64,000 bases of DNA from Parcubacteria group bacterium (lineage in GTDB: Bacteria > Patescibacteriota > Minisyncoccia > Moranbacterales > GCA-2747515): positions 8,535 to 72,534 of the forward strand of contig JBAZXC010000001.1 of NCBI GenBank assembly GCA_041660065.1, given 5' to 3'. Of the stretch, positions 5,838 to 60,278 are shown one piece after another (the stretch's first letter is position 1; each line of letters starts with the position of its first letter). The notes beneath the pieces were generated by a model. It ran no database searches, was not told the DNA's origin, and was given only the letters and a program-made list of their open reading frames with translations. Both the position numbers and the translations under genes were made by a program.

Positions 5838-6515
5838 ATGCCATTGCACAAGATCGAGAAGATGCTCTCGTTTGCAGAAAATGAAAAGACGTTTTTTGAG
5901 CGCATTCGGAAATATCATTCGGTGTATTCTCCTGAATATCGTATGATCGAGCGCGCTTATGATAATGCTCTCAATGCTTTTTCGGAAACATATCGTGATG
6001 GAGGACAGCCTTACTTTACGCATGTGCGCGCAGTTGCAATTATTCTAATCGAGTATTTGCATATCTATGAACGCGCGGATCTGATATACGCTCCGCATGA
6101 ATTGCTTATCACGGGAATGTTGCATGACAATCCGGAGGATCGGCCTGATATTTGGCCACTTAGTCGTGTTGCGCGTGATTACAATGAAAATGTTGCACTA
6201 CTTTCGGATTATATCTCCAAAAGGCCGAAGGCAGAGTTTGGTGGCAATGAAGAAAAGCAACTGGCATTTTATCACAACCGATTCTCGACGGCGCCAAAGG
6301 ATGTTTTTATTATCAAGCTCTCAGACCGTCTTCATAATCAATTGACGTTGTGGAGCTGTGATGAGCAGAAGATCCGGCGGAAAATGCAGGAAACGCAAGA
6401 TATCTATCTGCCGTTGGCGCGTAAATGGGGGATATTGGTACATGAGTTGGAAGCGACGATTGATAGTTTTGAAGATCGTCTCAAACAGCATTTGCAAAAA
6501 TGTGCAATTCTATGA
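5838..6515 (+). CDS. HD-domain phosphohydrolase of the RelA/SpoT (HD_4) type, small-alarmone-hydrolase-like
   Basis: FTHVRAVAIIL (His), LITGMLHDNPED (HD), IIKLSDRLHNQLTL (DRLHN) in the order typical of the (p)ppGpp hydrolase fold. No synthetase domain. Confidence 0.7.
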   Translation: MPLHKIEKMLSFAENEKTFFERIRKYHSVYSPEYRMIERAYDNALNAFSETYRDGGQPYFTHVRAVAIILIEYLHIYERADLIYAPHELLITGMLHDNPEDRPDIWPLSRVARDYNENVALLSDYISKRPKAEFGGNEEKQLAFYHNRFSTAPKDVFIIKLSDRLHNQLTLWSCDEQKIRRKMQETQDIYLPLARKWGILVHELEATIDSFEDRLKQHLQKCAIL

Positions 6516-27285: not shown

Positions 27286-27491
27286 AATTCCCCTTCATTT
27301 CCCTTTACAAAAGGGAAAAATTTTCTCCCTTTTGTAAAGGGAGATGTCCGAAGGACAGAGGGATTTACAACTTTCTATTTTGCAAAGGGAATTGCCTGCC
27401 CGCAGTACTTTTGCACGTGCAATGCAGGCGGGGAGGGATTGGGAACTCTCCCTTTCGTAAAGGGAGTTGGAGGGATTTTTGTAAAAACCAT
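27286..27491. repeat. composite palindromic intergenic repeat block (CCCTTTACAAAAGGGA hairpins, a ~55-bp unit TCTCCCTTTTGTAAAGGGAGATGTCCGAAGGACAGAGGGATTTACAA, a CTGCCCGCAG...GCAGGCGGGG palindrome, and GGGATTGGGAACTCTCCCTTTCGTAAAGGGAGTTGGAGGGATTTTT)
   Basis: Units recur at 27855-28200, 29086-29172 and 31375-31490. Confidence 0.75.
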
Positions 27492-27854
27492 ATGCTCAAG
27501 CATTATAATGCATATCTAAAAAGGAATGCACGAACCCTTCGTAAGAATATGACGAAAGCTGAGGTGATTCTGTGGAGTATAATTCGCAGGAAACAAATCT
27601 GCAATGTGCAGTTTTATCGTCAAAAACCTTTGGGAAAATATATTGTGGATTTTTATTGTCCTTCGAGAAATTTGGTCATTGAGATTGATGGAGGACATCA
27701 TTATGAGGATGGAGAAATTATTGATGATGATCTACAAAGGGAAAAATTTTTAAGAACGGAATTACGTTTAAAAGTTTTACGATTTACAAATGATGATATT
27801 TGTAAAAATTTGACTTCTGTGGTCGATAAGATTATTGAGGAGTTGGGTCAGTAG
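27492..27854 (+). CDS. DUF559 endonuclease-domain protein (Vsr/Mrr-like fold)
   Basis: TKAEVILWSIIRRKQ...FYRQKPLGKYIVDFYCPSRNLVIEIDGGHH...LRLKVLRFTNDDI. The listed ORF's N-terminal 27 aa (MHVQCRRGGIGNSPF...) are read-through of the repeat; the ATG is at 27492. Confidence 0.7.
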   Translation: MLKHYNAYLKRNARTLRKNMTKAEVILWSIIRRKQICNVQFYRQKPLGKYIVDFYCPSRNLVIEIDGGHHYEDGEIIDDDLQREKFLRTELRLKVLRFTNDDICKNLTSVVDKIIEELGQ

Positions 27855-28252: not shown

Positions 28253-29044
28253 ATGCATAAAGCACTAAAACAACACGAAAACTATAGGGAGTTGATCTGG
28301 ATGCTTGCCAAGACGGATTTCAAATTGCGTTATCAGGGATCAATGTTGGGGTATCTTTGGGCGTTATTAAAGCCGCTCCTCACTTTTGCAGTGTTGAATT
28401 TTGTTTTTTCTGCCGTGTTTAATCCGCGCAACGCAACGGGCGTGGATACATATTCTCTAGAATTACTTGTGGGACTTATGATGTTTTATTTTTTCTCTGA
28501 GGGAACAAGCGCAGGTCTTAGCTCGCTTGTGGCAAAATCACAATTGGTGACAAAAATTTATGTGCCACGATGGACGATCATTCTTGCGTCCACGATCAAT
28601 GCAACGATGATCTTTGCGATGAATTTATTGGTGATCGTCTTTTTCTTTACATTAAAGGGATTTATGCCGAGCATTGGTTCAATAGCATTATTTCTGGTCT
28701 TTGCAGTGTTTATCTATATCATTGTCTTATCATTTTCTCTGATTACGGCACCGCTCTACGTGAAATTTCGGGATCTCTCCATGATCTGGGAGGTGCTTCT
28801 CATGATCATCATGTATGCATCGCCGATCATTTATCCGCTTGTGACACTGCCGGCGCAATATCATCCATACATCCTCCTCAATCCACTGGCGTTTATCATT
28901 CATTTTACCAAAGAGTCGTTGATCCATGGACATTATGCCGATCCATATCAGTATATGATTTTTATTTTCATTGTTGCCGGAGGATTTGTGTTGAGTATTT
29001 TTTCATACAATAAATTTATTACAAATGTTGCGGAGGAGATGTAG
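28253..29044 (+). CDS. ABC-2 type polysaccharide exporter permease (Wzm/TagG-like)
   Basis: 263 aa, six TM helices, N-terminal WMLAKTDFKLRYQGSMLGYLWALLKP typical of Wzm. Confidence 0.8.
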   Translation: MHKALKQHENYRELIWMLAKTDFKLRYQGSMLGYLWALLKPLLTFAVLNFVFSAVFNPRNATGVDTYSLELLVGLMMFYFFSEGTSAGLSSLVAKSQLVTKIYVPRWTIILASTINATMIFAMNLLVIVFFFTLKGFMPSIGSIALFLVFAVFIYIIVLSFSLITAPLYVKFRDLSMIWEVLLMIIMYASPIIYPLVTLPAQYHPYILLNPLAFIIHFTKESLIHGHYADPYQYMIFIFIVAGGFVLSIFSYNKFITNVAEEM

Positions 29045-29256: not shown

Positions 29257-30402
29257 ATGAAAATATTGATCACAAACAATGCATTGGCATCTCGATCGGG
29301 CAGTGAGCTGTATGTGCAGGAGCTTGCACAGCAGCTCGTTTTGCGTGGGCATGATGTTGCGGCGTTTAGCACGCAAGTTGGCGATTTGGCGCAGGTAATG
29401 ATGGCACAAGGTGTCGTGGTAGTGGACGATCTCGCCAAAATGCCATGGATGCCGGACATTATCCATGTGCAACATCATCTGGAGACGATGATCGCTTTGG
29501 CATATTTTCCACAAACGCCGGCAATCTATGTGTGCCATGGATGGAGACCGTGGCAGGAGACGCCACCATTGCATCCGCGGATCAGAGCGTATTTTGCCGT
29601 TGATATGAAGACACGTGACAAAGCGATCAATGAACATCATATTCCTGCTACACAGATCGAATTATTACATAACTTTGTTGATCTGGATCGTTTCGTTTTG
29701 TGTAGTCCATTGTCTGCAAAACCACGCAAAGCGCTTGTTTTTAGTAACTATGCATCCCAGGGAAAAATGCTTTTCTATATCCGTCATGCATGCAAAAAAG
29801 CAGGAATGTCATTGGATGTGATTGGCAGGTCATCCGGAAATCTTGCGGATAAGCCGGAGGAAATTCTCGGTAATTATGACATCGTTTTTGCTGCCGGTCG
29901 CAGTGCGCTTGAGGCAATGGCATCTGGAGCATCTGTGATCGTGTGTGGCGTATGGGGCATGGGTCCGCTGGTGACGCGTGATAATGTAGAGCAATTTCGT
30001 GATCAGAATTTTGGGTCCATGACAATAAATCACTCTGATTTAAGCATAGACACAATTTATCGTGAGATTTGCCATTATGATGCCAAGGATGCGGCGTTGG
30101 TCACACAATATTTGCGAGAGAGGATTGGAATCGATCAGACAGTTGACCGGCTGGAAAAGATCTACGAACACACGATAGAAGCATTTGAAAGTGTGCAATA
30201 TGATCCGTCAGAAGAGCATTTTGCGTATGCACAGTATATAAGGAATGTCGCAATATTTCTCAAAAAACGAGACGAACAATTGAATGAAATACATGACAGC
30301 ATTCAACAAAGAGAACAAAAAATGAAAGGGATACACAAATTGATCTTTTGGAAATGGTGTTGTGGTTGTGCGTGGTTAAAACGTAAAATATGTAAAATCT
30401 GA
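29257..30402 (+). CDS. glycosyltransferase (GT4-like, GT-B fold)
   Basis: N-terminal MKILITNNALASRSGSELYVQELAQQLVLRGHDV and central FAAGRSALEAMASGASVIV. Confidence 0.6.
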   Translation: MKILITNNALASRSGSELYVQELAQQLVLRGHDVAAFSTQVGDLAQVMMAQGVVVVDDLAKMPWMPDIIHVQHHLETMIALAYFPQTPAIYVCHGWRPWQETPPLHPRIRAYFAVDMKTRDKAINEHHIPATQIELLHNFVDLDRFVLCSPLSAKPRKALVFSNYASQGKMLFYIRHACKKAGMSLDVIGRSSGNLADKPEEILGNYDIVFAAGRSALEAMASGASVIVCGVWGMGPLVTRDNVEQFRDQNFGSMTINHSDLSIDTIYREICHYDAKDAALVTQYLRERIGIDQTVDRLEKIYEHTIEAFESVQYDPSEEHFAYAQYIRNVAIFLKKRDEQLNEIHDSIQQREQKMKGIHKLIFWKWCCGCAWLKRKICKI

Positions 30403-30405
30403 TTT

Positions 30406-31263
30406 ATGATGCCAAAAATAAGTATCATCATGCCGACATATAATCGCAAGTATTGTATCAAAAATGCGATTGATTCTCTTTTGGCGCAAACATATCAAGG
30501 TTTTGAACTTATTGTTGTTGATGATGGATCACGAGATGGAACAGACAGTTATGTGAAGAGTCTGTATAGTGATGAAGTAAAGAATGGAAAAATTAGATAT
30601 ATCAAATTACCTGAAAATAGAGGACAGTCATTTGCCAAAAATGAAGGTCTGAAGAAAGCGCAATATGATTGGATTGGCTATCTCGATACTGACAACAGGA
30701 TGCATCCGGATTTCTTGGAGATATTTATGGAGAGTATAGATCGATATCCGGATCGTCAAGTATTTTATGCGCAACACAGAAGAGTATATAGCAAATGTGT
30801 TGTTGGCTCACCATTTAATTTGGACCTATTAGTATCGGGAAATTATATTGATATGGGAGTATTTGTGCATTCCAAAACAGTGTATCACGATCTGGGAGGT
30901 TTTGATTTCTCTTTGCATTGCCTCGATGATTGGGATTTGATCATTCTTTATACGGAAAAATATCATCCGGTATTTATTGAAAAGGTTTTACTAGATTATT
31001 CTGATGATCCTAAAGCTTTACGAGCAACATCGATAGGAAATCATAAAAATGAATATAAAAAAATCATTCTCAAATATTATCAGCGGATCCCAGAGGCGGA
31101 TTTCATGAGTCGATATCAAAATTTGTTTGTAAAATATACTACAAAAGACAATACGACTAATGATTTGATTGAGACTATTTCTCATATGAAATCATCGAAA
31201 TTTTGGAAGTTGCGGGAAAGATATATGTCTTTCAAAAAAATGCTCAAAAAACGATTCATTTGA
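30406..31263 (+). CDS. glycosyltransferase, GT2 family, with a basic C-terminal tail shared with the downstream sulfotransferase
   Basis: ISIIMPTYNRKYCIKNAIDSLLAQTYQGFELIVVDDGSRDGT and DTDN. Tail IETISHMKSSKFWKLRERYM. Confidence 0.8.
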   Translation: MMPKISIIMPTYNRKYCIKNAIDSLLAQTYQGFELIVVDDGSRDGTDSYVKSLYSDEVKNGKIRYIKLPENRGQSFAKNEGLKKAQYDWIGYLDTDNRMHPDFLEIFMESIDRYPDRQVFYAQHRRVYSKCVVGSPFNLDLLVSGNYIDMGVFVHSKTVYHDLGGFDFSLHCLDDWDLIILYTEKYHPVFIEKVLLDYSDDPKALRATSIGNHKNEYKKIILKYYQRIPEADFMSRYQNLFVKYTTKDNTTNDLIETISHMKSSKFWKLRERYMSFKKMLKKRFI

Positions 31264-31519: not shown

Positions 31520-32353
31520 ATGTCAGATATTGCCATTAAAGTTAAAGATATTTCCAAAACCTTTCGTATTCCGCACGAAAAGATCACATCTCTTCGCGGT
31601 GCGGCGATTTCCGCATTCAAAAAAAAGACCTACGAAGAATTTAAGGCGTTGGATGGTGTTTCTTTTGAGGTGAAAAAAGGAGAATTTTTTGGCATTATTG
31701 GCAGAAATGGCAGTGGCAAATCAACTTTTCTCAAGATTCTTGCGAGTATTTATAAGCCGGACAAAGGAAAATTAAAAATAGATGGCATGATCTCGCCATT
31801 TCTTGAATTGGGCATAGGATTTAATCCAGAGTTATCAGGAAGGGATAATGTCTATCTCAATGCCACGGTTCTCGGCATGACCAAAAAACAGATCGATGAA
31901 AAATTTGATGATATTATCAAATTTTCTGAGCTGGAGCGATTTGTTGATCAAAAACTCAAAAATTACTCCTCTGGCATGAGTGTACGCTTGGCATTTTCTG
32001 TATCGATCCACGCAAATAGAGATATCCTCCTCATGGATGAAGTATTGGCTGTGGGAGATGCAAATTTTCAGAAAAAATGTATCGATATATTTAAAGATTA
32101 TCACGCGAAAGGAAAGACGGTTATTTTGGTTACGCATGACATTAGTTCAGTGCGAAGATATTGCAGTCGAGCACTTCTTCTTCATGATGGAAAAATCGTG
32201 AAGATCGGTGATGTGAATGATGTGTGTGATGCATATATCATAAAAAATGTGACAGCTGATGCAAGAAAGGAATTATTGGAAAATGAAAAAATGCAAAAAA
32301 TTGAGGATGAGCGAGAAGCAGAATTGAGTTCTAAGAATAAAAAACAATCTTAA
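31520..32353 (+). CDS. ABC transporter ATP-binding protein of the polysaccharide exporter (Wzt/TagH-like), lacking a C-terminal carbohydrate-binding extension
   Basis: GRNGSGKST (Walker A), LSGGMSVRLAFS (signature), ILLMDEVLAVGD (Walker B). ATG at 31520, after the repeat. Confidence 0.85.
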   Translation: MSDIAIKVKDISKTFRIPHEKITSLRGAAISAFKKKTYEEFKALDGVSFEVKKGEFFGIIGRNGSGKSTFLKILASIYKPDKGKLKIDGMISPFLELGIGFNPELSGRDNVYLNATVLGMTKKQIDEKFDDIIKFSELERFVDQKLKNYSSGMSVRLAFSVSIHANRDILLMDEVLAVGDANFQKKCIDIFKDYHAKGKTVILVTHDISSVRRYCSRALLLHDGKIVKIGDVNDVCDAYIIKNVTADARKELLENEKMQKIEDEREAELSSKNKKQS

Positions 32354-32444: not shown

Positions 32445-33755
32445 ATGAATAAAAAAAATAATAACGGTTTGGTGATTTGGCTGACCGGGTTGCCATGTAG
32501 CGGAAAAACGACCTTGGCAAAAGAAATTGAAAAATACTTCATAAAAAGAGAAATGCCGGTTCAGCGATTGGATGGTGATGTTGTGCGAGAAACGATCAAT
32601 AAAGATCTCAGCTATAACAAAGCGGATCGGGACAAAAATATTGAGAGAGTGGCACATGCGATACAAAAAATTTCTGACGATGGGATCAACGTTGTATCGG
32701 CTTTTGTGTCGCCGTATCAGAGGATGCGAGACTTCACGCGTTCTTTGTGCAAAAATTACGTTGAAATATATGTAAAGTGCAGTATAGAAGAATGTATGAG
32801 GCGGGACACGAAAGGTATGTATAAAAAAGCGATCAACGGAGAAATTAAAGATTTCACAGGGGTGCAGGATCCTTTCGAAATTCCACAAAATCCTGATATT
32901 GTGGTCGATACTGAGAATGAAACAGTGGAAGAGAATTTTAAAAAAATTATTGAATATATAGAAAAAACATCTGTCATTGATGTTGATGAAGTTATAAAAA
33001 TTGTGAGAGACGCCGGTGCTATAGTGATGCGTTTTTATGATGTGGAGTATTCTATAGAAGAAAAAGAAAATAAATCACCGGTCACAGATGCGGATATGGC
33101 CAGTCATGATTTTCTTGTGAAAAAATTATCTAAATATGGATATCCTGTTCTTAGTGAAGAAGGTGATCATAATTTTATGCAAAGAAAAAACTCCAAGTAT
33201 GTGTGGATCATTGATCCGCTTGATGGCACAATGGAATTTATCAAAAAAACGAAAGAATTCTCTCTCATGATCGGCTTGGCAGATAAAGAAGGGGAGTCAA
33301 TTTTTGGCATAGTATATGCTCCGGCTCTGGATGAACTATATTTTGCTCAGAAGGGCGGGGGAGCATATATGACCAAAAATGACCAAAAAGTAAAATTGCA
33401 TGTCAGTGATAAGGGAATAAAAAACGGTAAGATTTTGGTCAGCAGAAATCATTTGGGAGAATTTGAGCAAAAATTTGCTCGGAAAAATAACATGCAGCAA
33501 GTCCCGATGGGTTCAGCAGGATTAAAGATATGCCGTATTGCCAGAGGTGATGCCGAGTTGTATATCAACTCAAGTGATAAAAGTGGTATGTGGGATATTT
33601 GTGCAGCTGATGTTATTTTAAAGGAGGCGGGAGGTAAGTTAACTGATATGAATGAGAAAAAGATCTTTCACAATGTAGAGAATGTTTTTTTGATGGAGGG
33701 ATATGTCGTTTCAAATAATTGTTTCGATATTCATAATAAATTGTCTGATGAATGA
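32445..33755 (+). CDS. bifunctional adenylyl-sulfate kinase (CysC) / 3'(2'),5'-bisphosphate nucleotidase (CysQ-like inositol-monophosphatase fold) fusion
   Basis: N-terminal half: GLVIWLTGLPCSGKTTLA, LDGDVVRETINKDL, SAFVSPYQRMRD (APS kinase). C-terminal half: WIIDPLDGT, WDICAADVIL (IMPase/CysQ motifs). Confidence 0.8.
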   Translation: MNKKNNNGLVIWLTGLPCSGKTTLAKEIEKYFIKREMPVQRLDGDVVRETINKDLSYNKADRDKNIERVAHAIQKISDDGINVVSAFVSPYQRMRDFTRSLCKNYVEIYVKCSIEECMRRDTKGMYKKAINGEIKDFTGVQDPFEIPQNPDIVVDTENETVEENFKKIIEYIEKTSVIDVDEVIKIVRDAGAIVMRFYDVEYSIEEKENKSPVTDADMASHDFLVKKLSKYGYPVLSEEGDHNFMQRKNSKYVWIIDPLDGTMEFIKKTKEFSLMIGLADKEGESIFGIVYAPALDELYFAQKGGGAYMTKNDQKVKLHVSDKGIKNGKILVSRNHLGEFEQKFARKNNMQQVPMGSAGLKICRIARGDAELYINSSDKSGMWDICAADVILKEAGGKLTDMNEKKIFHNVENVFLMEGYVVSNNCFDIHNKLSDE

Positions 33756-34692
33756 TAAAAAAGTAATATGTGTGTTAGGGATGCATAGAAGCGGAACGTC
33801 AATGGTTACGCGCATTTTGAATATTTGTGGAGCATGTGTTGGTCCTGAGGAGGAGCTTTTGGGATCTGGAGATGGTAATGATTGCGGGCATTGGGAAAAT
33901 CGTGAGATTTTAAAGATCAATGACGACATTCTAAGTATTTTTGGCGGCGCATGGAATGATCCTCCAAATTTTCCGTATAATTGGGAGGAGGATCCTCGTC
34001 TCGATCATCTTTATGAAGAAGCCAATATATTTGTGAAAAAGATGAATGCGATGGATAAAATATGGGCTTTTAAAGATCCACGCACCTGTTTGACACTTCC
34101 TTTTTGGAAAAAAATTATTCCCCATATGCTCTTTGTGATTCCTGTGCGAGACTCTATGGAGGTGGCAATGTCTCTAAGTAAAAGAGATAAATCCTCAATT
34201 GAAAGCGGTCTTTTCTTGTGGAAAAAATATTGGATGAGTATTTTGAAAAATACAAAAGGCGAAAATAGAATTTTTACAATTCAAAAGAACTACTTTGCTG
34301 ATTGGAAAAAAGAACTTCAAAATGTTATAGATTTTATTGATTCCGTTGATATTGATATTATTGGAAACGAAAAGGAAATTAAAAATTTTATTTCCCCAAA
34401 GTTAAACAACAATAAGATTGTGGTAAGTAACATTCCCGATGAATTAAATGGTGAAAATATAACAAAGTACATATTGGATGAGGTTAGTGATATCTTTGAC
34501 AAAATTGATGGTAAGATATTTTCCGAAATTCAAGAAAAAGGCCAAAAAATAACGGATTTATCCAATGAAATAGAAACCATGAAAGCATCAAAATTTTGGA
34601 AATTACGTGATCAATATATGCGTATAAAAAATAGTGTAAAATTCGCGCTACTTTCTTTTAGAAAATTTATTAAGAAATATTTAAAGATTTGA
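33748..34692 (+). CDS. sulfotransferase-family protein (PAPS-dependent, Sulfotransfer_3-like)
   Basis: VICVLGMHRSGTSMVTRIL (5'-PSB P-loop-like motif). Start overlaps the upstream stop (ATGAATGA). C-terminal tail IETMKASKFWKLRDQYM...FRKFIKKYLKI. Confidence 0.6.
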   Translation: MNDKKVICVLGMHRSGTSMVTRILNICGACVGPEEELLGSGDGNDCGHWENREILKINDDILSIFGGAWNDPPNFPYNWEEDPRLDHLYEEANIFVKKMNAMDKIWAFKDPRTCLTLPFWKKIIPHMLFVIPVRDSMEVAMSLSKRDKSSIESGLFLWKKYWMSILKNTKGENRIFTIQKNYFADWKKELQNVIDFIDSVDIDIIGNEKEIKNFISPKLNNNKIVVSNIPDELNGENITKYILDEVSDIFDKIDGKIFSEIQEKGQKITDLSNEIETMKASKFWKLRDQYMRIKNSVKFALLSFRKFIKKYLKI

Positions 34693-34694
34693 TC

Positions 34695-36755
34695 ATGTCA
34701 AGAGTTATTGTATCTATTCCACTATATAAAGACACAATGAGTGAGTTCGAAAGGATCTCACTGGTTCAATGTTGCAAGATCTTGCATGAGCACGATTTTT
34801 CTCTTGTTTGTCCACATGATCTAAGTATTGGGGCATACACAAGCATACTGGATTCTTACAGTATTGTTTATAAGATTGGAAGATTTTCCAATGAATATTT
34901 TGAAAGTGTGGGGAAATACAATCGCTTGATGATGGATAGTGATTTTTATAAAAAGTATACAGACTACGATTTTATGCTTGTGTATCAGCTAGACGCGTAT
35001 GTTTTTAGAGATGAACTCGCATATTGGTGTAAAAAGAATTTTGATTATATTGGTGCGCCGTGGTTTGAAGGATTCAGCCTGAGCAATGACAAGTCCAGAT
35101 TATTGGATGTGGCAGGAAATGGTGGTTTTTCTTTGAGGAAAGTTAGAAGTTTTATCAATATTCTCAATCATGAGAATGATGTGGAGATGATCATAAAACA
35201 ATATATGGATGGCAGCCAAAATGAAGATGTATTTTTTAGCAGATATGCAAGGGAGATTGATAAAAAGTTTAAAGTTGCTCCTCCGCATGACGCGATGTTT
35301 TTTTCGTTTGAATGTCAGCCACGCAGATTATATAAAATGATGAAAAATAAATTGCCATTTGGGTGTCATGGGTGGGAAAGATATGATTTTGATTTTTGGG
35401 AAAAATATATTGATTTGATGGGTGTAGACTTTAAAAGGGAAAATAAATTGAATTTGAAAAAATTATCAAAAATGCGCAGTGCCTTGGATTGTAAAGTTGG
35501 TGAATATGAAAGCGTGTATCATAGGATGATTACTGCTGAGAAAGAACTGCGTAGTATAAAAGAGGAGGGCGTCCCTTTAAAAGACGATCTAAAGAAGATA
35601 AAAAATGACTTCAACCAGAAGTTCGCGATGGAGGCACAGAAAGTCAATAAAGTTCTTTTTCCAAATGGAACCTTGAGAAAAAAAGTTGTAATTTTTTTTA
35701 TATATAGAATGAAAGGATTTTTGTGGTCAATATTAAAATTCAAGACCTCTATGCCTTTGAAATCAGATAATGATATACATAGCAATACATTTTTACATGA
35801 GAATCCATTGGTAACGGTAGTTACAATCACTTTCAATCTCATGCAAGCCGGCCGAGAGAAATATTTTCGTCAATGTGTCAAATCAGTTCATGATCAGACA
35901 TATAAAAACATTGAACATATCATTATCGATGGTGCATCAAAAGATGGAACAGTTGAATTGATTAGAGAATTTGCTGATAAGGGGTGGGTTAAATATGTAT
36001 CAGAGCCTGATAATGGAATATATGATGCGATGAATAAGGGCATTTTGCTTGCCAAAGGTAAATATGTGGTATTCTTAAATTCTGATGATTATTGGCATGG
36101 GATAGACGGGGTTATGGAGTCGGTAAAGATATTGGAGGAGAATGGAGCGGATTTTTCTTATGCTCCGGCCAGAATAGAAAAAGAAAACGGGCGTCCGTAT
36201 AAGGGTAATCATCCATATCGCATGCCTAAAATTTCACACGTTTTTTTCTCAATGCCGTTTTGTCATCAAACCATGTTCACCAAGAAGGATATTTTATTGA
36301 AAGAAGCGCTATTCGATACGCGCTTCAGAAGTGCAGGTGATTATGACTTGATTCTAAGAATTTGCCTCAAAGGGTATAAAAGTATTTTGGTGGATAATGA
36401 GTTTACAACATTTCGATTGGGTGGATTTTCAGGAACTAATGCACAGGAAGGATTGAATGAAGTTTCTAATTCTTACTTTAATCATTTAAACAGACTAGTG
36501 AAAATATCAGAAGAAGATTGTGAAAAAATATTTGGAAATTATTTTAGCGGGATACCAAAAGAGTTGGCTCAAGAGTTAAAAAAATATGAACCCTATTTTG
36601 ACTTCAGAGAATATGAAAATAGTTTTAAGATGAGAAATAGGATAAAGCGGATGATAAAAATCTTATCAAACAAAATGTGCTTTACTATTTTTTCTCCCAG
36701 AAAATTTGTAAAGAAATATGTAATAAAGTTAAGAAAACGAAATGAAAAAAACTAA
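34695..36755 (+). CDS. two-domain glycosyltransferase: N-terminal nucleotide-sugar transferase-like domain, coiled-coil linker, C-terminal GT2 domain
   Basis: N-terminal DAYVFRDEL...IGAPW...GNGGFSLRKV. C-terminal VTVVTITFNL...IIIDGASKDGT...FLNSDD. Ends in a basic tail SPRKFVKKYVIKLRK. Confidence 0.65.
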   Translation: MSRVIVSIPLYKDTMSEFERISLVQCCKILHEHDFSLVCPHDLSIGAYTSILDSYSIVYKIGRFSNEYFESVGKYNRLMMDSDFYKKYTDYDFMLVYQLDAYVFRDELAYWCKKNFDYIGAPWFEGFSLSNDKSRLLDVAGNGGFSLRKVRSFINILNHENDVEMIIKQYMDGSQNEDVFFSRYAREIDKKFKVAPPHDAMFFSFECQPRRLYKMMKNKLPFGCHGWERYDFDFWEKYIDLMGVDFKRENKLNLKKLSKMRSALDCKVGEYESVYHRMITAEKELRSIKEEGVPLKDDLKKIKNDFNQKFAMEAQKVNKVLFPNGTLRKKVVIFFIYRMKGFLWSILKFKTSMPLKSDNDIHSNTFLHENPLVTVVTITFNLMQAGREKYFRQCVKSVHDQTYKNIEHIIIDGASKDGTVELIREFADKGWVKYVSEPDNGIYDAMNKGILLAKGKYVVFLNSDDYWHGIDGVMESVKILEENGADFSYAPARIEKENGRPYKGNHPYRMPKISHVFFSMPFCHQTMFTKKDILLKEALFDTRFRSAGDYDLILRICLKGYKSILVDNEFTTFRLGGFSGTNAQEGLNEVSNSYFNHLNRLVKISEEDCEKIFGNYFSGIPKELAQELKKYEPYFDFREYENSFKMRNRIKRMIKILSNKMCFTIFSPRKFVKKYVIKLRKRNEKN

Positions 36756-38430
36756 TATGGTTGCGAACATTATTTATAAAAGAGTTCTCATTTGGTTGGT
36801 AGTAGCAATTCTTTTTTCTGTTATACAAATACAACACTCTCTCAATCGAGGGCAACTAAGTTTACCGCCCAGTTATGATGATGTTTCTTATTTTAACGAT
36901 GCCCTTGGTCGACTAAATATATTTTATGAGAAAGATTTTGGAGGTTTATTACTTGACTATGTGAAAAATCCACCCCATTCTCCTATAAGCACATTGTTAG
37001 CATTTGTTGGTTTTTTGATATTTGGAATACAGGATTGGGCGCCTGCCCTTATGAATTTTGTTGTTATTTTTGCAGTTTTGCTTTTTGTGGATTATTTGGG
37101 TACAGGATTGAATTATGGATGGAAAATTTTCGTTTCTTTATCAGGTCTTATATGGCTTCTCATGGGGCATGCGGTCATAGAATTCAGGCCAGATATATTT
37201 TGTGGAATAATAACAGCAATGGGTGTTATCTTGATCGCGGAAAAACCGTGGGTAAATATTTCTAATGTACGTCAAAAAATTATTGGTGCTCTGGTGGGAC
37301 TTGCTCTTCTTATCAAACCCGTTATTTTTCCCGTTACACTTTTATTGATTTTTGTAGCTATATGTTTGCGAATATTGACTGATAGATTTATTTTAAAAAT
37401 ACCAAGAGATCTAAAAAAACTATTATTAGATAGTAAAGTATTTGTGTTGTATGTCATATTTGTTTCAGCCCCCTATTTTATTTTTGGGTGGAAAGATACG
37501 ATTGAATACATATATCAAAATCAATTTGTCGACCTGGAAAAGGTGTGGGGAATGCATGCCCTTCCATTTATAGAGCGGATTAACTATTATGTGATGGGTG
37601 AGGGTGGTTCGATGATGATGAAAAACGATCTATACGTGTGGGTATGGCTCATTGTAGTTGCCTTCGTCATCATAGCTTACAAAAAAATGTGGAAAGAGAT
37701 GGTTCATTTGCCTGCTTTGGTGGGCACGATAACTGTTGCATATGCAATAGTAACTATTTCCAGTCATAAGAGTCCTTTTCTGGGAGTTGTTTTTCCTTGT
37801 TTTATTTTTTTTACAGGGATGCAAATGTTGATTTTTTCCATAAGAAACGTCGCTATTTTTAATGGTTTTTATAAAAAATGCTTGATAGTTTCCATCATAT
37901 TTTCTCTCTTGATCTCTTTGCGCTTTTTTGAGTGGCCGGCGTCCAATGATCTCGTTTCGCCAAATCCCAGATCAATTGCAGAAAGGAATTATTACAATGG
38001 ACTATTAGGTAGGATTTATGATGACATTACGGCTGATGTTCGTTTGCGTATACAAAATGATGATGAATCATCAAAAAAGAAAAAAAATAATAGTAAGAAG
38101 AAAATATATTTAAGCTCAATGGCTCATTGGGTACATGAGGGTAGTCTTAAATATTATCAATTCAAGTTGCGTGAAAAAAAATTCGTTATAGATACGGGAA
38201 CATTATCAGATGATCTGGATAAACAAATAAAAGATATAAACACTTCTGACTATATATTGGCCTTTGGTGTGCCTAGCTTGGACACGCCAAGTTGGCTTCC
38301 GAGTGCTAGAATAGAGGATCAAGTCTTGCGGTTTTTAAATGGTTCTCCAAAATTTGTGTTGGTCAATACATATACAAATCCCTATACAGGAGCAAAAATT
38401 TTCCTGTATGCTAATATTAATAATAATTAA
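36742..38430 (+). CDS. polytopic membrane protein (>=10 TM) with C-terminal soluble domain; possible GT-C-type transferase or glycan-related membrane protein
   Basis: 562 aa. Hydrophobic helices through ~aa 400, then a ~160-aa hydrophilic C-terminus. No definitive motif. Confidence 0.4.
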   Translation: MKKTNMVANIIYKRVLIWLVVAILFSVIQIQHSLNRGQLSLPPSYDDVSYFNDALGRLNIFYEKDFGGLLLDYVKNPPHSPISTLLAFVGFLIFGIQDWAPALMNFVVIFAVLLFVDYLGTGLNYGWKIFVSLSGLIWLLMGHAVIEFRPDIFCGIITAMGVILIAEKPWVNISNVRQKIIGALVGLALLIKPVIFPVTLLLIFVAICLRILTDRFILKIPRDLKKLLLDSKVFVLYVIFVSAPYFIFGWKDTIEYIYQNQFVDLEKVWGMHALPFIERINYYVMGEGGSMMMKNDLYVWVWLIVVAFVIIAYKKMWKEMVHLPALVGTITVAYAIVTISSHKSPFLGVVFPCFIFFTGMQMLIFSIRNVAIFNGFYKKCLIVSIIFSLLISLRFFEWPASNDLVSPNPRSIAERNYYNGLLGRIYDDITADVRLRIQNDDESSKKKKNNSKKKIYLSSMAHWVHEGSLKYYQFKLREKKFVIDTGTLSDDLDKQIKDINTSDYILAFGVPSLDTPSWLPSARIEDQVLRFLNGSPKFVLVNTYTNPYTGAKIFLYANINNN

Positions 38431-38435
38431 TAAAA

Positions 38436-39167
38436 ATGCAACTTTCTATCATCATCTGCACCTACAATGTCGGACAGCGTTTAAAAAAAACGTTGGATTC
38501 GATATTGGCGCAAGGGGAGGATTGTTATGAGGTGATAATCGTTGATGGAGTATCAACAGATGGAACGATAAATGTCATTGAGAGCTATCAGGATAAGTTT
38601 GGAAAAAAATTGCTCTGGAGCAGTGAAAAAGACAGTGGAATTTACAATGCTATAAACAAGGGTGTAAAATTAGCTAACGGAGAATATCTCAACATTATTG
38701 GCGCAGGGGATTGGATGGAAAAAGATGTGTTGAATAAAGTGTATAAACGCATTTTGCAAAACAATAACCCAGATGTTGTTTACGGAAAGACGAGAGTGTG
38801 GAACGCTGAAATGACGACTAGTTATGTAAAACAGACGTTGCCGGAGACCTTGTCAAAAGAACCGATGCAACATCCAGCCATGTTTTACAAAAGAGAATTG
38901 CATGAAAGATTTGGTTTGTATGATGAAAGATATAGGATCGCATCTGACTATGCTTTTTGCTTGAAATCTCTCTCTGTTGGAAAAGTTGCTGTAAAAATAG
39001 TACCGGAAATTTTTTGTAATTTTGTTACGGATGGCATCAGTTCAAAAAGCAGGTGGCTCTCTTTGAAAGAAGTAACAAAGATCAAACAGGAATGTGGGAT
39101 AGGGACAAATTTTTTGAAAGAAGTATTTTTATCGACAAGATTAGGGAAACGATTATGCCACAAATAA
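38436..39167 (+). CDS. glycosyltransferase, GT2 family
   Basis: LSIIICTYNVGQRLKKTLDSILAQGEDCYEVIIVDGVSTDGT. Confidence 0.8.
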   Translation: MQLSIIICTYNVGQRLKKTLDSILAQGEDCYEVIIVDGVSTDGTINVIESYQDKFGKKLLWSSEKDSGIYNAINKGVKLANGEYLNIIGAGDWMEKDVLNKVYKRILQNNNPDVVYGKTRVWNAEMTTSYVKQTLPETLSKEPMQHPAMFYKRELHERFGLYDERYRIASDYAFCLKSLSVGKVAVKIVPEIFCNFVTDGISSKSRWLSLKEVTKIKQECGIGTNFLKEVFLSTRLGKRLCHK

Positions 39168-40003
39168 GTGTTGTGATCCCATGTTATAATCATGGGAAAT
39201 ATTTAGAAGAAGCTGTAATTTCTGTTAAAAAACAGACTTTTAGCGATTATGAGATCATCGTGGTCAATGATGGATCGACAGATGAGGAGACGATAATGGC
39301 GTTGGATCAGTTAAAAGAAAAATATACAGACGTGTTGTTTATCGATCAAGAGAATGGTCATCTCGCCAATGCGAGAAACACGGGCATACGGGTTTCTCAG
39401 GGAGAATTCTTTCTTCCTTTGGATGCTGATGACAAAATTGATTCTCAGATGTTGGAAAGATGTCTCAGAGAAATACAGAAAGATAATAGATTGGGTTTTG
39501 TATATACATATACGCAATTTTTTGGTGATTTTACGGCAATTTTACCAAGGCCACAATATGACTTTTATGAACTGCTGAGGAAGAACTATATTGTGGCGAG
39601 TGCTTTGATTCGAAAGAGCGCTTGGCGAGAGATCGGCGGTTATGACGAAAATATGAAAAGTGGCTATGAGGATTGGGAATTCTATATTCGCCTGGCAAAA
39701 AATGGATGGTATGGAAAGCTAATCAGAAAGCCACTGTTTTATTATCGTAAACATGGCAAATCCATGATCAGTGATGCAACGATAAAAAATGATATGAATG
39801 CAGAATATATCCGGACAAAACATGCTGATATCTACGCTCCGGAAAAACTGCATGCTATAAAAATCGAATGGAAAAAGAAAAACCGTGATCGTTACTGGCA
39901 TGCCAGTTTTTATACGGAATCATTTTTGATGACCATTTTTATCTTCAAAAGATATGGCTTTGACGGATTGATGTCCAGAATAAAAAAATATCTTACTTTT
40001 TGA
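39155..40003 (+). CDS. glycosyltransferase, GT2 family
   Basis: [51 protein letters not shown] at 39155 overlaps the upstream gene by 13 nt. Confidence 0.8.
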
Positions 40004-40934
40004 TAGCGTTTTCTTGTTCCAAAAACCATTCATACGTTTTCCGAATGCCGTCTTTTAAGTCCGTCTCGTGTTTCCATCCGAGAGAATGAAGTCTGTCGAC
40101 ATTGAGAAGTTTTCGGGGGGTGCCATCCGGCTTGGATGTGTCGTGGATGATATTGCCGGTATAACCAATGATCTCTTTGATCGTAAGAGCGAGTTCTTTG
40201 ATCGTGACATCTTCTCCGGTACCGATGTTGATGATCGCACTGTCAGAATACGTGTTCATTAGAAAAACGCAGGCATCAGCCAGATCATCGACAAATAAAA
40301 ATTCACGCATGGGAAATCCTGTGCCCCACATAATGACTTCCGGATCATTTTTTATTTTTGCATCATGAAATTTGCGCAAGAGAGCGGGGAGGACGTGGGA
40401 GTTTTCTAGATTGAAGTTGTCATTGATGCCATAGAGATTTGTCGGCATGACGGAGATAAAATTTGTTTCGTATTGCGCGTTATATGATTGGCACATTTTG
40501 ATACCTGCGATCTTTGCGACTGCATATGCCTCATTGGTTTTTTCCAATGATCCGGTTAGGAGATATTCTTCTTTGATCGGCTGGGGGCAATTACGCGGAT
40601 AAATACAAGAGCTCCCGAGGAAGAGGAGTTTTTTTGTTTTGTGCAAATATGCGTTATGAATGATATTATTCTGTATCTGGAGATTTTGATAGATAAAATC
40701 GGCAGGGTAGGTTTCATTGGCATGGATGCCACCAACCTTTGCAGCGGCTAAGAACACATAGTCTGGTTTTTCATTTTCAAAAAAATCAAACACATCTCGT
40801 TCATTGAGGAGGTTAAGTTCTTGTCGCGTTTTTGCGATCAAATTTGCGTAGCCTTTTTTTGTGAGGTTTCTAACAAGGGCAGATCCAACAAGTCCATTAT
40901 GCCCAGCGATATAAATTTTTGCATTTCTTTCCAT
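39993..40934 (-). CDS. fcl: GDP-L-fucose synthase (GDP-4-keto-6-deoxymannose 3,5-epimerase/4-reductase)
   Basis: [38 protein letters not shown] (YxxxK). The listed ORF extends to 40976; Met at 40934 avoids overlap with gmd. Confidence 0.85.
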
Positions 40935-40944
40935 GAGTTTGCTT

Positions 40945-41982
40945 TTATTTTGTAGCTGTTTCCTTTTTGAGATCAAACTCCATCATGACCTTTACCAATT
41001 CTTTGAATTTGGTTTTGGGTTTCCATTTAAGAAGTCCTGCTGCCTTGGATGGATCACCAAGAAGTAGATCGACTTCGGACGGTCGATAGTAGCGCGGATC
41101 TATGCGAATGATCACCTTTTTGGTTTTTTTATTGATGCCAACTTCTTTTGCACCTTTGCCTTTCCACCGGAAGTCTATACCGGCAATTGCACATGCCAAT
41201 TCCACAAATTCACGTACGGAATGTGTTTCACCGGTTGCCAGTACGAAGTCCTCGGCTTTTTTTTGCTGGAGCATGCGCCACATACCCTCTACATAGTCTT
41301 TGGCATAACCCCAATCGCGTTTTGCATCGAGATTGCCGAGGTAGAGGCAATCATCTTTACCGGTCAAGATCCTCGCAAGCCCACGTGTGATCTTTCGTGT
41401 GACGAATGTTTCACCACGTCGCGGGGATTCATGATTGAAGAGGATGCCATTGCATGCAAAAATATTATAACTTTCGCGATAGTTGACCGTGATCCAATAA
41501 GAATACAATTTCGCACAGCCATAGGGAGACCTGGGATGAAAAGGCGTCGTTTCTTTTTGGGGTGTTTCTCGTACAAGTCCGAAAAGCTCACTGGTAGATG
41601 CCTGATAAAATTTTGTTTTAAATCCGGAGTCTTTGATCGCATCAAGTATGCGGAGAGTGCCAAGGCCGGTTACATCAGCGGTATATTCAGGGTTATCAAA
41701 ACTGACCTTTACATGGCTTTGGGCTGCGAGATTATAGATCTCATCCGGTTTGATCTTCTCTATAAGGCGAGAGATGCTGGAGCTATCAGAGAGATCGCCA
41801 TAATGGAGAAACAACTTCACATTATTGATATGAGGATCTTTGTAAAGGTGATCAATACGTCCCGTATTAAAGGAACTTGATCGGCGGATGATCCCATGTA
41901 CTTCATAGCCCTTTTCCAGAAGCAATTCTGCCAAATACGAACCATCCTGACCGGTAATGCCAGTGATCAATGCTTTTTTCAC
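40945..41982 (-). CDS. gmd: GDP-mannose 4,6-dehydratase
   Basis: [46 protein letters not shown] and the downstream SDR-extended motifs. Confidence 0.9.
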
Positions 41983-42651: not shown

Positions 42652-42755
42652 CAAATTAACGAGTTAAATAGTTAACGGATTAACGAACTGATGACGGAAT
42701 TTTTACAATAATTCTTTAACGCGTGAACTCGCTAATTCGTTAATTGTGTTTAATA
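42652..42755. promoter_or_regulatory. TTAACGA-type box array between convergent and divergent minus-strand genes
   Basis: CGAGTTAAATAGTTAACGGATTAACGAACTG...TTAACGCGTGAACTCGCTAATTCGTTAATTG. Confidence 0.4.
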
Positions 42756-44675
42756 TAGTGGGTTTAATGAAATTCCCGTGTAATAATATTTCATGATCTT
42801 GTCGTATTTCCAGTCTTTGTCACGAGCGAGAACGAGCGATCCATTGGCGATGAGTCCAACCATGTGATTGCCTTCAGATTCGAGTGTTTTTGTGGATTTG
42901 TTGGGGTGTTTGCCATAAGGGTCATCCACGGATTTGCACCATGGGTAATCGGATGATCTCCAGCGTTCTTTGTAGCTACGTGTATGACCATCGCTCCATG
43001 AGCTATATGGTGTGAGAGCGATCTCATTTTTGTATTTTGCGATGACTCCACGTGTAGCTTCAGCTGCTTTTTTGATGTTGGGATATTTCTTTTCCCATTC
43101 ATATCCTCGATAGATCTGCGAGCCGGAATCGCTACGGATCTTGAATCCAAGTGGTGCATATTTGGTCGCGTATTCGATATACCATCGGCCATATGTGCGG
43201 AAGATCGTGGTCATGACTTTGGTGTGATCCATATCACCTGTGCCAGTCGTTTCACCCATGCCCCATGTGTATTGCTCAAGTGGGAGAGTATTGATCACCC
43301 AGATCTGCGTGACAGTGCTCGAGGTGCCGGCGATGATGTTTTTGCCTTTGTAATAGCGTACGGTGATCTTGCCACGATATTCATCATAGGATGAATCCGG
43401 TCGGTGTACATTGAAAATAAGAGAAGCGTTGTCGTTATCAGCTGCATCAAATGTAACTGCAGTCTTTATTTTTTTGGAGGAGATAGAGCCATATACTTTG
43501 AGATAACCATCGCTGTCATAGGTAACTTTGGTGTGTGTGTTGCCACCAATCTGCGCTAACACATTGCCATCCTTGTCTTTGATGTTATAGGGTTTATTCG
43601 TTTCAATCTCAAATGGATCGTTTTGAATTCCAGATTTGTCATAATACCAGAGACCGACAGCGATATTTGGTCCCATACCGGAAGAGAGGAGATTATTTTT
43701 TTCTATCTCGTTAATAGTATAAATTTGATCGGTTCCATTATAAAAGTAGTAGACTGGCAAAGTATTTTCCGCTTGAGAAGGATATGCATAAAATGCGATG
43801 CCTTCATACACGTTTGTATTTGATTTTGTTAGTTCATTCTTCTTCTCCTCGTCAGCTGTATAAAAATGATCTCTTGTCTTTTTGTCATAAAAGCGGTAAA
43901 TGGGAATCAGGTCGTCTGCTTGTGCAGGGTAGGTATAAAACGCGACTCCCTCGTATTTGTAAGTTGTTTTTGGCGTGGCGATGATGGTATTTTTTTCTTT
44001 TTCACTTGCAGTGTAGAGGTGGTCGCCGGTAATTCTGTCATAAAATCTATAGACAGGGCTGGAATTTTTTTTAGAGAGGTTGTTTAATTTTGCGGCCTCG
44101 AGCTCATCGGCCGTATAAAGGTGATCTCCGTTAGTCTTATTATAGAAACGATAAATATCCGATGTATCTGTTTTTTTTGTAGTGTATGCATAGAATGCGA
44201 TTTTTTCGTAAGAATAGACTGATGCGAGATTTTTTTGCACGTTGGCCTTTTCTTTTTCATTTGCTGTGTAAAAGTGATCGCCATTTATTTTGTTATAAAA
44301 TTGATAAACGGGTTGTGAATCGTTAAGTGTTTTTGTATACGCGTAAAATGCTATACCATCATAGGTATACGGGGAATTGGTTTGGTTTATCAAACTGTCT
44401 TTTTGTTTTTCATCGGCTGTATAAAAATGATCGCCGGTGGTTATGTTGTGAATACGATAAATAGGAACAGTATCCTCTTGTTGTGTTGTAAATGCATAAA
44501 ACCCTGTTCCTTCCGGTTGATAGTCCGTTGCGGTGTAGCGATCTTTATACGCGTAGAATGATGTTTTTTCAAGGTTATAACCGGCGTGAGCTGTGGTTAC
44601 ATTTCCCAAAAAACAGACAGTGATGCCCAAGAGAACAAGAAAAAACGATAATATGTGATGATATTTTATTTGCAT
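42750..44675 (-). CDS. secreted SpoIID/LytB-domain protein with ~8 N-terminal FYT-type tandem repeats (DUF5648-like)
   Basis: Repeats of PVY(R/Q)FYN..(T/N)GDHFYT..E.EK. C-terminal LEQYTWGMGE, IYRGYEWEKKYPNIKKAAEATRGVI, SSWSDGHTRS, GNHMVGLIANGSLVLARDKDWKYDKIMKYYYTG (SpoIID family). Confidence 0.65.
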   Translation of the reverse strand: MQIKYHHILSFFLVLLGITVCFLGNVTTAHAGYNLEKTSFYAYKDRYTATDYQPEGTGFYAFTTQQEDTVPIYRIHNITTGDHFYTADEKQKDSLINQTNSPYTYDGIAFYAYTKTLNDSQPVYQFYNKINGDHFYTANEKEKANVQKNLASVYSYEKIAFYAYTTKKTDTSDIYRFYNKTNGDHLYTADELEAAKLNNLSKKNSSPVYRFYDRITGDHLYTASEKEKNTIIATPKTTYKYEGVAFYTYPAQADDLIPIYRFYDKKTRDHFYTADEEKKNELTKSNTNVYEGIAFYAYPSQAENTLPVYYFYNGTDQIYTINEIEKNNLLSSGMGPNIAVGLWYYDKSGIQNDPFEIETNKPYNIKDKDGNVLAQIGGNTHTKVTYDSDGYLKVYGSISSKKIKTAVTFDAADNDNASLIFNVHRPDSSYDEYRGKITVRYYKGKNIIAGTSSTVTQIWVINTLPLEQYTWGMGETTGTGDMDHTKVMTTIFRTYGRWYIEYATKYAPLGFKIRSDSGSQIYRGYEWEKKYPNIKKAAEATRGVIAKYKNEIALTPYSSWSDGHTRSYKERWRSSDYPWCKSVDDPYGKHPNKSTKTLESEGNHMVGLIANGSLVLARDKDWKYDKIMKYYYTGISLNPLY

Positions 44676-60247: not shown

Positions 60248-60278
60248 ATTATTACAATACGTTCAGTATAGATGAAAT

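Follow-up and report, generated by a model that had tools for sequence, protein, structure and literature searches.

We describe a sulfation module encoded in a 64-kb stretch of DNA (hereafter the window) on contig JBAZXC010000001.1 of a Parcubacteria group bacterium, a member of the candidate phyla radiation (CPR). The module consists of a gene fusing an adenosine 5'-phosphosulfate (APS) kinase, CysC, to a CysQ-type 3'(2'),5'-bisphosphate nucleotidase, and of an overlapping sulfotransferase gene, both residing among genes for glycosyltransferases and an ATP-binding cassette (ABC) exporter. It probably serves as the sulfation arm of an operon for a cell-surface glycan and thus predicts a sulfated surface glycan, although its components belong to known kinds. 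A sequence-only reading of this DNA had placed a 3'-phosphoadenosine 5'-phosphosulfate (PAPS) module, comprising a kinase, a phosphatase for 3'-phosphoadenosine 5'-phosphate (PAP) and a sulfotransferase, inside an ABC-transporter-dependent glycan operon, and domain profile hidden Markov models (HMMs) and the gene packing both bear this out. CPR bacteria are uncultivated episymbionts whose attachment to their hosts is largely obscure, and a conserved sulfation module in their glycan operons predicts strongly anionic, sulfated envelope polymers.

The features of the module are as follows, with positions counted within the window.

32445-33755, + strand: open reading frame (ORF) of the CysC::CysQ fusion, 436 aa
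32445-32972, + strand: N-terminal domain of the fusion, an APS kinase (CysC), aa 1-176, with the P-loop at 32487-32513 and the LDGD motif at 32568-32588
32952-32987, + strand: fusion junction EYIEK/TSVIDVD, at the merged ancestral 8-nt overlap of cysC stop and cysQ start
32973-33755, + strand: CysQ-type 3'(2'),5'-bisphosphate nucleotidase domain of the fusion, aa 177-436
33150-33164, 33204-33230 and 33588-33611, + strand: CysQ-domain motifs LSEEG, WIIDPLDGT and MWDICAAD, respectively
33748-34692, + strand: sulfotransferase ORF, 314 aa, overlapping the fusion ORF by 8 nt (ATGAATGA)
33748-34392, + strand: sulfotransferase catalytic domain (PF13469), aa 1 to about 215
33778-33801, 33886-33900 and 34144-34173, + strand: sulfotransferase motifs, namely the 5'-phosphosulfate-binding (5'-PSB) loop GMHRSGTS, the stretch holding E50, and the 3'-phosphate-binding (3'-PB) motif R134-x7-S142
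34450-34587, + strand: long single helix in the AlphaFold2 model, a candidate coiled-coil spacer, aa 235-280, 46 residues
34606-34686, + strand: basic amphipathic C-terminal helix, a predicted peripheral membrane anchor, aa 287-313, following a conserved SKFWKLR

The kinase-phosphatase protein

Both halves of the fusion match their Pfam families with E-values near 1e-51, well outside what chance would produce, as expected from the sequence-only reading, which had recognised an APS kinase joined to a CysQ-type phosphatase and quoted motifs that were all found. The N-terminal half corresponds to PF01583 APS_kinase (aa 8-155, E 1.6e-51, 174.7 bits against a cut-off of 21.1) and the C-terminal half to PF00459 Inositol_P (aa 184-424, E 6.7e-52). 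The kinase half also passes the NCBIfam model TIGR00455 (185.6 bits, cut-off 138.7), and its closest solved structures are the APS kinases 2yvu and 1d6j, with 2gks, 1x6v and 4bzp as further relatives in the PDB. It contains GLPCSGKTT (aa 15-23), LDGDVVR (aa 42-48), AFVSPY (aa 86-91) and FTGVQDPFE (aa 137-145), corresponding to the P-loop GxxxxGK[ST], LDGD (Mg/APS), SPY and FTG-x-x-P-[YF]-E, which we take to be the motifs of the APS kinase family. A protein identical to the fusion, on a contig of 469,125 bp, carries the annotation 'MAG: adenylyl-sulfate kinase [Parcubacteria group bacterium]'.

Among NCBIfam models, the C-terminal half scores best with TIGR01331 CysQ (204.1 bits), followed by HisN (112.8), FBPase/IMPase (90) and SuhB/IMPase NF008027 (63.2), and the closest solved structure is the Bacteroides CysQ 3b8b. 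A SuhB/IMPase identity, which the sequence-only reading had named as the competing assignment, is rejected in view of the difference between the CysQ and SuhB scores. The metal-binding motifs of the Inositol_P family (EE, DPxDGT and WDxxA) are intact in LSEEG (aa 236-240), WIIDPLDGT (aa 254-262) and MWDICAAD (aa 382-389), and homologues of this half are syntenic with cysC, sat and sulfotransferase genes in related loci. In the AlphaFold2 model of the fusion both domains are confidently predicted (mean predicted local distance difference test score, pLDDT, 93.9). CysQ enzymes are able to hydrolyse PAPS as well, as the earlier reading pointed out, and the domain in the fusion presumably favours PAP over PAPS.

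Origin and recurrence of the fusion

The closest unfused relatives of the two domains are found in L005, a Moranbacteria contig, and L007, a Parcubacteria contig, where Wzt is followed by a CysC of 175-176 aa and then by a CysQ of 248-258 aa, the cysQ start overlapping the cysC stop by 8 nt (AAAAATGCATAA). When the DNA of the three junctions is aligned, there is a single 1-nt gap, located in the window and exactly at the stop/start overlap. This net deletion of 1 nt eliminates the stop and the ATG, leaving no ATG in the cysQ frame at the window junction, and puts ...EYIEK in frame with TSVIDVD..., so that only a 4-residue linker separates the last kinase helix (161-175) from the first CysQ helix (180-195) in the AlphaFold2 model. 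The fusion thus originated by a net 1-nt deletion within the overlap of two neighbouring genes, a trivial and on its own minor evolutionary event, and in this lineage it is recent.

The fused frame could in principle stem from a homopolymer indel introduced in sequencing or assembly, with the two genes being separate in reality, as the junction sits in an A-rich run (GAAAAAACAT) and differs by one base from the unfused relatives. We consider this extremely improbable and reject it, since the junction is likewise uninterrupted (reading EYIEKPPIIDVD) in protein P0002, which is 81% identical and belongs to a separate assembly, the cysQ-frame ATG has been lost, and 22 further kinase-first fusions exist. 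Because P0002 shares the junction, the fusion is genuine.

Among the proteins retrieved, 50 combine both an APS kinase and a CysQ domain, with the kinase first in 23 and CysQ first in 27, and their named sources include Parcubacteria, Nanoarchaeota and one Asgard archaeon. As both domain orders occur, there must have been at least two independent fusion origins. Furthermore, the two domains of the window protein are 64-68% and 62% identical to the unfused genes of L005 and L007, compared with 55% and 49% to the nearest other fusion, P0003. In neighbour-joining trees of each domain the fusions are scattered among stand-alone genes; these trees are crude, carry no support values and are used only alongside the orientation argument and the pairwise identities. 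From the two domain orders and the proximity of the window domains to unfused genes, the architecture is rare but recurrent, and our literature search found no paper describing a CysC-CysQ fusion. The sequence-only reading had regarded the fusion as unusual and as suggestive of channelling. The rarity stands, with the addition that the architecture has recurred, while the case for channelling is weakened by the 50 proteins and by an origin in a 1-nt deletion. The most parsimonious interpretation is that the fusion fixes, at a 1:1 ratio, the co-expression of two enzymes whose translation was coupled beforehand, rather than representing an engineered channel.

A reverse-order CysQ-CysC fusion was additionally observed in a nanoarchaeal locus (L003:6578-18028, Nanoarchaeota GCA_048625195.1), near genes for a Sulfotransfer_1 protein, a Wzx-type flippase, glycosyltransferases and an STT3/AglB oligosaccharyltransferase, with no Sat (ATP sulfurylase) found within 21 kb. 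Based on its gene content, this locus suggests sulfated N-glycans in a DPANN archaeon, in parallel to the CPR modules.

The sulfotransferase

The gene following the fusion, which had earlier been read as a sulfotransferase with the loop GMHRSGTS (aa 11-18) and an overlap of exactly 8 nt, passes PF13469 Sulfotransfer_3 with 31.7 bits (cut-off 27), and its PAPS-binding residues are present. In an alignment of 52 homologues, the PSB loop G11-MHRSGTS-18 is at least 90% conserved and E50, K109, P111, R112 and S142 are invariant, with R134 nearly so, giving the classical R-x7-S motif for the 3'-phosphate. The family profile aligns RNpvdVArS with RNAKDVAVS of estrogen sulfotransferase, and the AlphaFold2 model has a mean pLDDT of 91.8.

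Beyond the catalytic domain, the last 34 residues have a net charge of +10 and a hydrophobic moment of 0.57, and the SKFWKLR motif preceding the terminal helix is kept in homologues P0123-P0138. The distance from the PSB loop to SSKFWK ranges from about 270 to 410 residues in homologues, a difference of about 140 residues, the gap being filled with heptad-like repeats (P0138, P0196, P0200), and the spacer of the window protein is at the shortest end of what the family shows. The C-terminal motif was located with a crude regular expression that returned 22 candidates from 120 homologues, a few of them spurious, and the spacer range is thus indicative rather than a census. In one homologue, P0144, the sulfotransferase shares a polypeptide with an ABC ATPase of the Wzt type and with a coiled coil, about 110 residues long and highly charged, which links the sulfotransferase physically to the exporter; P0144 is encoded on an ENA contig of 1969 bp whose end cuts the protein off. 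In the closest unfused relative (L007:2164-3138), the sulfotransferase is divided between two ORFs, one of 166 aa with the catalytic part and one of 130 aa with the coiled coil and SSKFWKLR, and the split reflects a frameshift, a pseudogene or an error of assembly.

The operon and the predicted route of sulfation

Among the genes surrounding the module, the Wzm/Wzt exporter, the glycosyltransferases of families 2 and 4 (GT2 and GT4) and gmd/fcl, all named in the sequence-only reading, were confirmed by Pfam matches.

28253-29044, + strand: Wzm, ABC-2 permease of the glycan exporter (PF01061 ABC2_membrane, E 1.2e-14)
29257-30402, + strand: GT4 glycosyltransferase (PF13439 Glyco_transf_4)
30406-31263, + strand: GT2 glycosyltransferase (PF00535, E 5.8e-34)
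31520-32353, + strand: Wzt, ABC ATPase, 277 aa (PF00005 ABC_tran only)
34689-36755, + strand: two-module protein of DUF5672 and GT2 (PF18922 E 1.8e-53, PF00535 E 8e-25), overlapping the sulfotransferase gene by 4 nt
36742-38430, + strand: polytopic membrane protein, 562 aa, no family match
38436-39167, + strand: GT2 glycosyltransferase (PF00535, E 3.4e-25)
39155-40003, + strand: GT2 glycosyltransferase (PF00535, E 4.9e-31), start taken from the L001 gene call
39993-40976, - strand: fcl, GDP-fucose synthase-like epimerase/reductase (PF01370, E 9e-62)
40945-41982, - strand: gmd, GDP-mannose 4,6-dehydratase (PF16363, E 3.4e-157)

Between 32445 and 40003, six genes follow one another with overlaps or with gaps of at most 5 nt and therefore form one translationally coupled unit. 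A scan of the locus for promoters and terminators was uninformative, with counts at or below the shuffled expectation. The G+C content is 32-37% over 30-40 kb compared with about 42% in the flanks, and low G+C is usual for variable surface-glycan islands. The 562-aa membrane protein has no match in Pfam or NCBIfam, contains 80 windows of 19 residues above 1.6 on the Kyte-Doolittle scale, and is 83% identical to its L011 counterpart; similarity to the similar-sized unknown proteins at the same position in L005, L007 and L014 is only marginal. Possibly it is an enzyme of GT-C-like type that works outside the membrane. The argument for a fucose-containing glycan, as predicted earlier, is solely the adjacency of gmd and fcl, which lie on the opposite strand, and fucose is accordingly best treated as a tentative constituent.

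In the route that we propose, the GT2 and GT4 enzymes would build the glycan on a lipid carrier at the cytoplasmic face, and Wzm/Wzt would export it. The N-terminal domain of the fusion would phosphorylate APS to PAPS, and the sulfotransferase, with its C-terminal helix, basic and amphipathic, and a helical spacer of about 46 residues as membrane tether, would move sulfate from PAPS onto the nascent glycan, freeing PAP. The CysQ domain would then convert PAP to AMP and phosphate, which would lift product inhibition and give adenylate back to a cell that depends on nucleotide salvage.

This combination recurs in at least six related loci. The gene order is Wzt-CysC-CysQ-sulfotransferase in L007, where Wzt bears a carbohydrate-binding module (CBM), Wzt-CysC-CysQ in L005, and Wzm-Wzt-CysC-sulfotransferase-CysQ-Sat-sulfotransferase-sulfotransferase in L016, with arrangements akin to these in L012, L013 and L014. 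The L016 locus (L016:1-19274, on an ENA contig of 1.55 Mb) also holds three TagF-like glycerophosphotransferases, and its polymer would be predicted to be both phosphorylated, similar to teichoic acid, and sulfated.

The recurrence also bears on whether the kinase and phosphatase serve assimilatory sulfate reduction for cysteine synthesis instead, in line with a metagenomic survey in which PAPS-synthesis genes of CPR bacteria were read as 'sulfate assimilation' (PMC12114108). ORF scans found no cysH, cysI or cysJ in the window, the genes are placed between Wzt and the sulfotransferase and co-oriented with glycosyltransferases, and the same arrangement is found in at least six related loci. An assimilatory role is consequently rejected as highly improbable.

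Counter-evidence, the acceptor and the source of APS

Several observations weigh against a glycan sulfation arm. The CysQ half, at 204.1 bits, remains below the TIGR01331 equivalog cut-off of 228.8, although no other model comes close to this score. The window ORFs that were scanned include no initiating phosphoglycosyltransferase (PF00953, PF02397). Among solved structures, the sulfotransferase is nearest in fold to enzymes that sulfate protein tyrosines and not to carbohydrate sulfotransferases. Moreover, no APS-forming enzyme (Sat, CysD or CysN) was detected with HMMs among all ORFs of at least 150 aa in the 64-kb window, and the best 120 homologues of the L012 Sat include no match from a contig of 469,125 bp, the length of the one with the identical protein, which is weak evidence, representing one contig and one type of Sat.

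Because of these nearest folds, we infer the glycan acceptor from genomic context only. In Foldseek searches against the PDB, the sulfotransferase model matched TPST1/2, Stf9, CurM-ST and Stf1 at a probability of 1.00 (E 1e-6 to 1e-4), and heparan sulfate 3-O-sulfotransferases (HS 3-OST) also reached a probability of 1.0. With tyrosylprotein sulfotransferases and mycobacterial Stf enzymes as the best structural matches, sulfate might be passed not to the exported glycan but to a tyrosine of a protein, to a lipid or to some small molecule. We consider this unlikely, as the sulfotransferase gene is translationally coupled on both sides within an operon of glycosyltransferases and an exporter, its homologues recur beside Wzm/Wzt with one of them fused to Wzt, and the TM-scores to TPST are just 0.42-0.47.

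The absence of an ATP sulfurylase from the window, already noted in the sequence-only reading, holds for the HMM scan as well as for a six-frame tblastn of the window with CPR Sat, CysD, CysNC and a PAPS_reduct-like protein, in which none was found. Likewise, the closest relatives L005 and L007 have no APS-forming enzyme within the 12-15 kb available. In other related loci such enzymes are at hand: Sat adjoins the PAPS genes in L012 and L016, Sat-CysC fusions occur in L014 and L015, and L009 has CysD-CysNC-CysQ. With the L012 Sat as query, there is a clear clade of CPR Sat proteins among the best 120 matches. That the bacterium lacks any ATP sulfurylase and makes PAPS from host-derived APS is a speculative idea, less likely than the general sulfate cap considered below.

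The L013 locus encodes a 224-aa protein of the PAPS_reduct family between Wzt(CBM) and CysC (L013:6793-7467), which scores nearly equally with CysH (106 bits) and CysD (104 bits), in both cases below the cut-offs. Instead of a PAPS reductase, it may represent an ATP sulfurylase in minimal, stand-alone form, and tblastn found no counterpart of it in the window.

Terminal cap or internal decoration

Chain terminators of ABC-dependent glycans, such as WbdD and others, have as their hallmark a modifying enzyme together with a ruler formed by a coiled coil and an amphipathic helix that associates with the membrane (PMC11231755). In the characterised capped systems, the cap is always read by a carbohydrate-binding module that the transporter bears on Wzt (PMC11231755; PMC9445017), and the known caps are methyl, methyl-phosphate and Kdo (3-deoxy-D-manno-octulosonic acid), not sulfate (PMC9445017). 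The sulfotransferase could be a terminator of this kind, placing a sulfate cap at the non-reducing end that stops polymerisation, with the helical spacer setting the length. Its build, with the enzyme at the N-terminus, then a helix of 46 residues and, at the C-terminus, a helix that is basic and amphipathic, resembles the WbdD format (PMC11231755), the spacer length varies among homologues, and P0144 joins Wzt, a coiled coil and the sulfotransferase. Furthermore, in L013 (40.8 bits) and L007 (31.9 bits) the gene directly upstream of the PAPS genes encodes a Wzt with the Wzt_C module, with matches below threshold in L005 and L016.

The Wzt of the window, however, matches PF00005 only and has no Wzt_C module, which every characterised capped system has. 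Its last residues are ...KNKKQS, and at precisely this point the L007 homologue (75% identical) runs on into a Wzt_C domain; only 91 nt separate the end of the window Wzt from the fusion gene. From this comparison, the window lineage seems to have lost the cap-reading module by deletion, right beside the cysC-cysQ fusion event. A terminator role also has to contend with the short spacer and with the chemistry of the known caps, and the presence of two or three sulfotransferases in several related loci (L016, L013) fits decoration as well as capping. For the window locus we therefore treat capping as a serious possibility that falls somewhat short of an even chance, and it would refine the proposed glycan sulfation rather than replace it. 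The suggestion of a capping step in the sequence-only reading is on balance strengthened by the helix architecture, the variable spacer, P0144 and the Wzt_C modules of the relatives, against which stands the lack of a cap-binding module on the Wzt of the window.

Sulfate may instead decorate internal residues, as in sulfated capsules, with the C-terminal helices serving only for membrane localisation. A Wzt without a cap-reading module and the multiple sulfotransferases of related loci agree with this, as does the sulfated capsule of Cobetia marina, which has rhamnose sulfate in its repeat unit and PAPS genes in its cluster (PMC11766843). The variable coiled coil, the conserved C-terminal motif and the Wzt-coiled coil-sulfotransferase fusion are left unexplained by internal decoration, which we likewise rate as plausible but not as the expected outcome. 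A terminal cap and internal decoration are about equally likely at the window locus.

By analogy with WbdD, the sulfotransferase family as a whole looks like a candidate for a new terminator chemistry. Our literature search found no sulfotransferase chain terminator; a 2019 terminator census in Glycobiology (Mann, Kimber, Whitfield) lay outside this search. In the broadest form of this idea, sulfate would be an undescribed terminating cap for ABC-dependent glycans, widespread in CPR bacteria, with the sulfotransferase family as the terminator and the Wzt_C modules of the relatives in Parcubacteria and Moranbacteria reading the sulfated end. This is speculative and on present evidence rather doubtful, but if true, CPR bacteria would have sulfated, teichoic-acid-like anionic wall polymers.

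Other genes in the window

An ORF with a DUF559 (endonuclease-like) domain at 27411-27854 separates a GT4 gene from Wzm on the border of the low-G+C stretch, and together with the low G+C it would fit a glycan island that is mobile or has been exchanged. On the other side, the sulfation operon is flanked by a large secreted DUF5648 protein with SpoIID as partner domain (42750-44675). Secreted DUF5648 proteins border every related CPR locus examined (L005, L007, L011, L016), with a subtilase or beta-helix domain as the partner there. Four PMT_2/ArnT-like GT-C membrane glycosyltransferases (47873-49468 and 56020-62042) occur near a UDP-glucose dehydrogenase (50624-51937) and additional GT2/GT4 genes, and much of the 64-kb window thus seems to consist of envelope-glycan genes.

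Further from the operon, the ORF at 4991-5560 matches PycTM, a Pycsar anti-phage effector (E 4.4e-9), with no cyclase seen next to it, and is followed by an HD_4 domain protein at 5838-6515. The protein encoded at 1868-3415 is a CHASE4 sensor-GGDEF diguanylate cyclase, which by its domains suggests that this reduced CPR genome provides for cyclic-di-GMP signalling.

Comparison with known systems

The general idea of PAPS genes and sulfotransferases in ABC-dependent glycan loci is already known, such genes having been described in capsule loci of Cobetia marina KMM 1449 (PMC11766843) and Campylobacter coli (PMC2147049). As in the window, these loci bring together cysC and cysQ functions, a sulfotransferase, glycosyltransferases and an ABC exporter, and CysQ is assigned the removal of PAP after sulfate transfer, the role also proposed here. 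In addition they have cysD and cysN genes, in Cobetia with a cysNC fusion, and Cobetia also has a sulfate permease, whereas the window has no gene for APS formation in its 64 kb. Moreover, they are of the Gram-negative Kps type with a separate CysQ, while in the window the kinase is fused to CysQ and not to CysN, and the host is a CPR bacterium. New or unreported are the CysC::CysQ architecture, the conservation of the whole module in CPR glycan operons, the terminator-like build of the sulfotransferase family and the reverse-order fusion in Nanoarchaeota.

Compared with the unfused cysC-cysQ pairs of L005 and L007, the gene order Wzt-cysC-cysQ-(sulfotransferase) is the same and the ATPase domain of Wzt is 75% identical. 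The differences are that cysC and cysQ are separate there, with the 8-nt overlap, and fused in the window, and that Wzt has a Wzt_C module in L007 and, with a match below threshold, in L005 but not in the window.

The bifunctional fusions known from the PAPS pathway (Sat-CysC, CysN-CysC and the animal PAPS synthase) likewise join APS kinase to an enzyme of the same pathway. However, they combine the consecutive steps of APS formation and phosphorylation, whereas the fusion in the window combines PAPS formation with PAP disposal, the sulfotransferase step lying in between. As a compact enzyme that would make PAPS and remove PAP, CysC::CysQ might be of use for in vitro sulfation, where inhibition by PAP is a practical problem.

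The sulfotransferase family, finally, resembles the terminators WbdD and WbbB in having an N-terminal modifying enzyme, a helical spacer of variable length and a C-terminal amphipathic helix, in being encoded in a Wzm/Wzt locus, and, in the relatives of the window, in the company of a Wzt with a carbohydrate-binding module. In WbdD and WbbB, catalysis is by a kinase/methyltransferase or a Kdo transferase, and here by a sulfotransferase. The window itself departs further from these systems by its short spacer (46 residues) and its Wzt without a carbohydrate-binding module, and a terminal placement of the sulfate is putative. Should the sulfotransferase family prove to be a terminator, it would add a new chemistry beyond the methyl, methyl-phosphate and Kdo caps.

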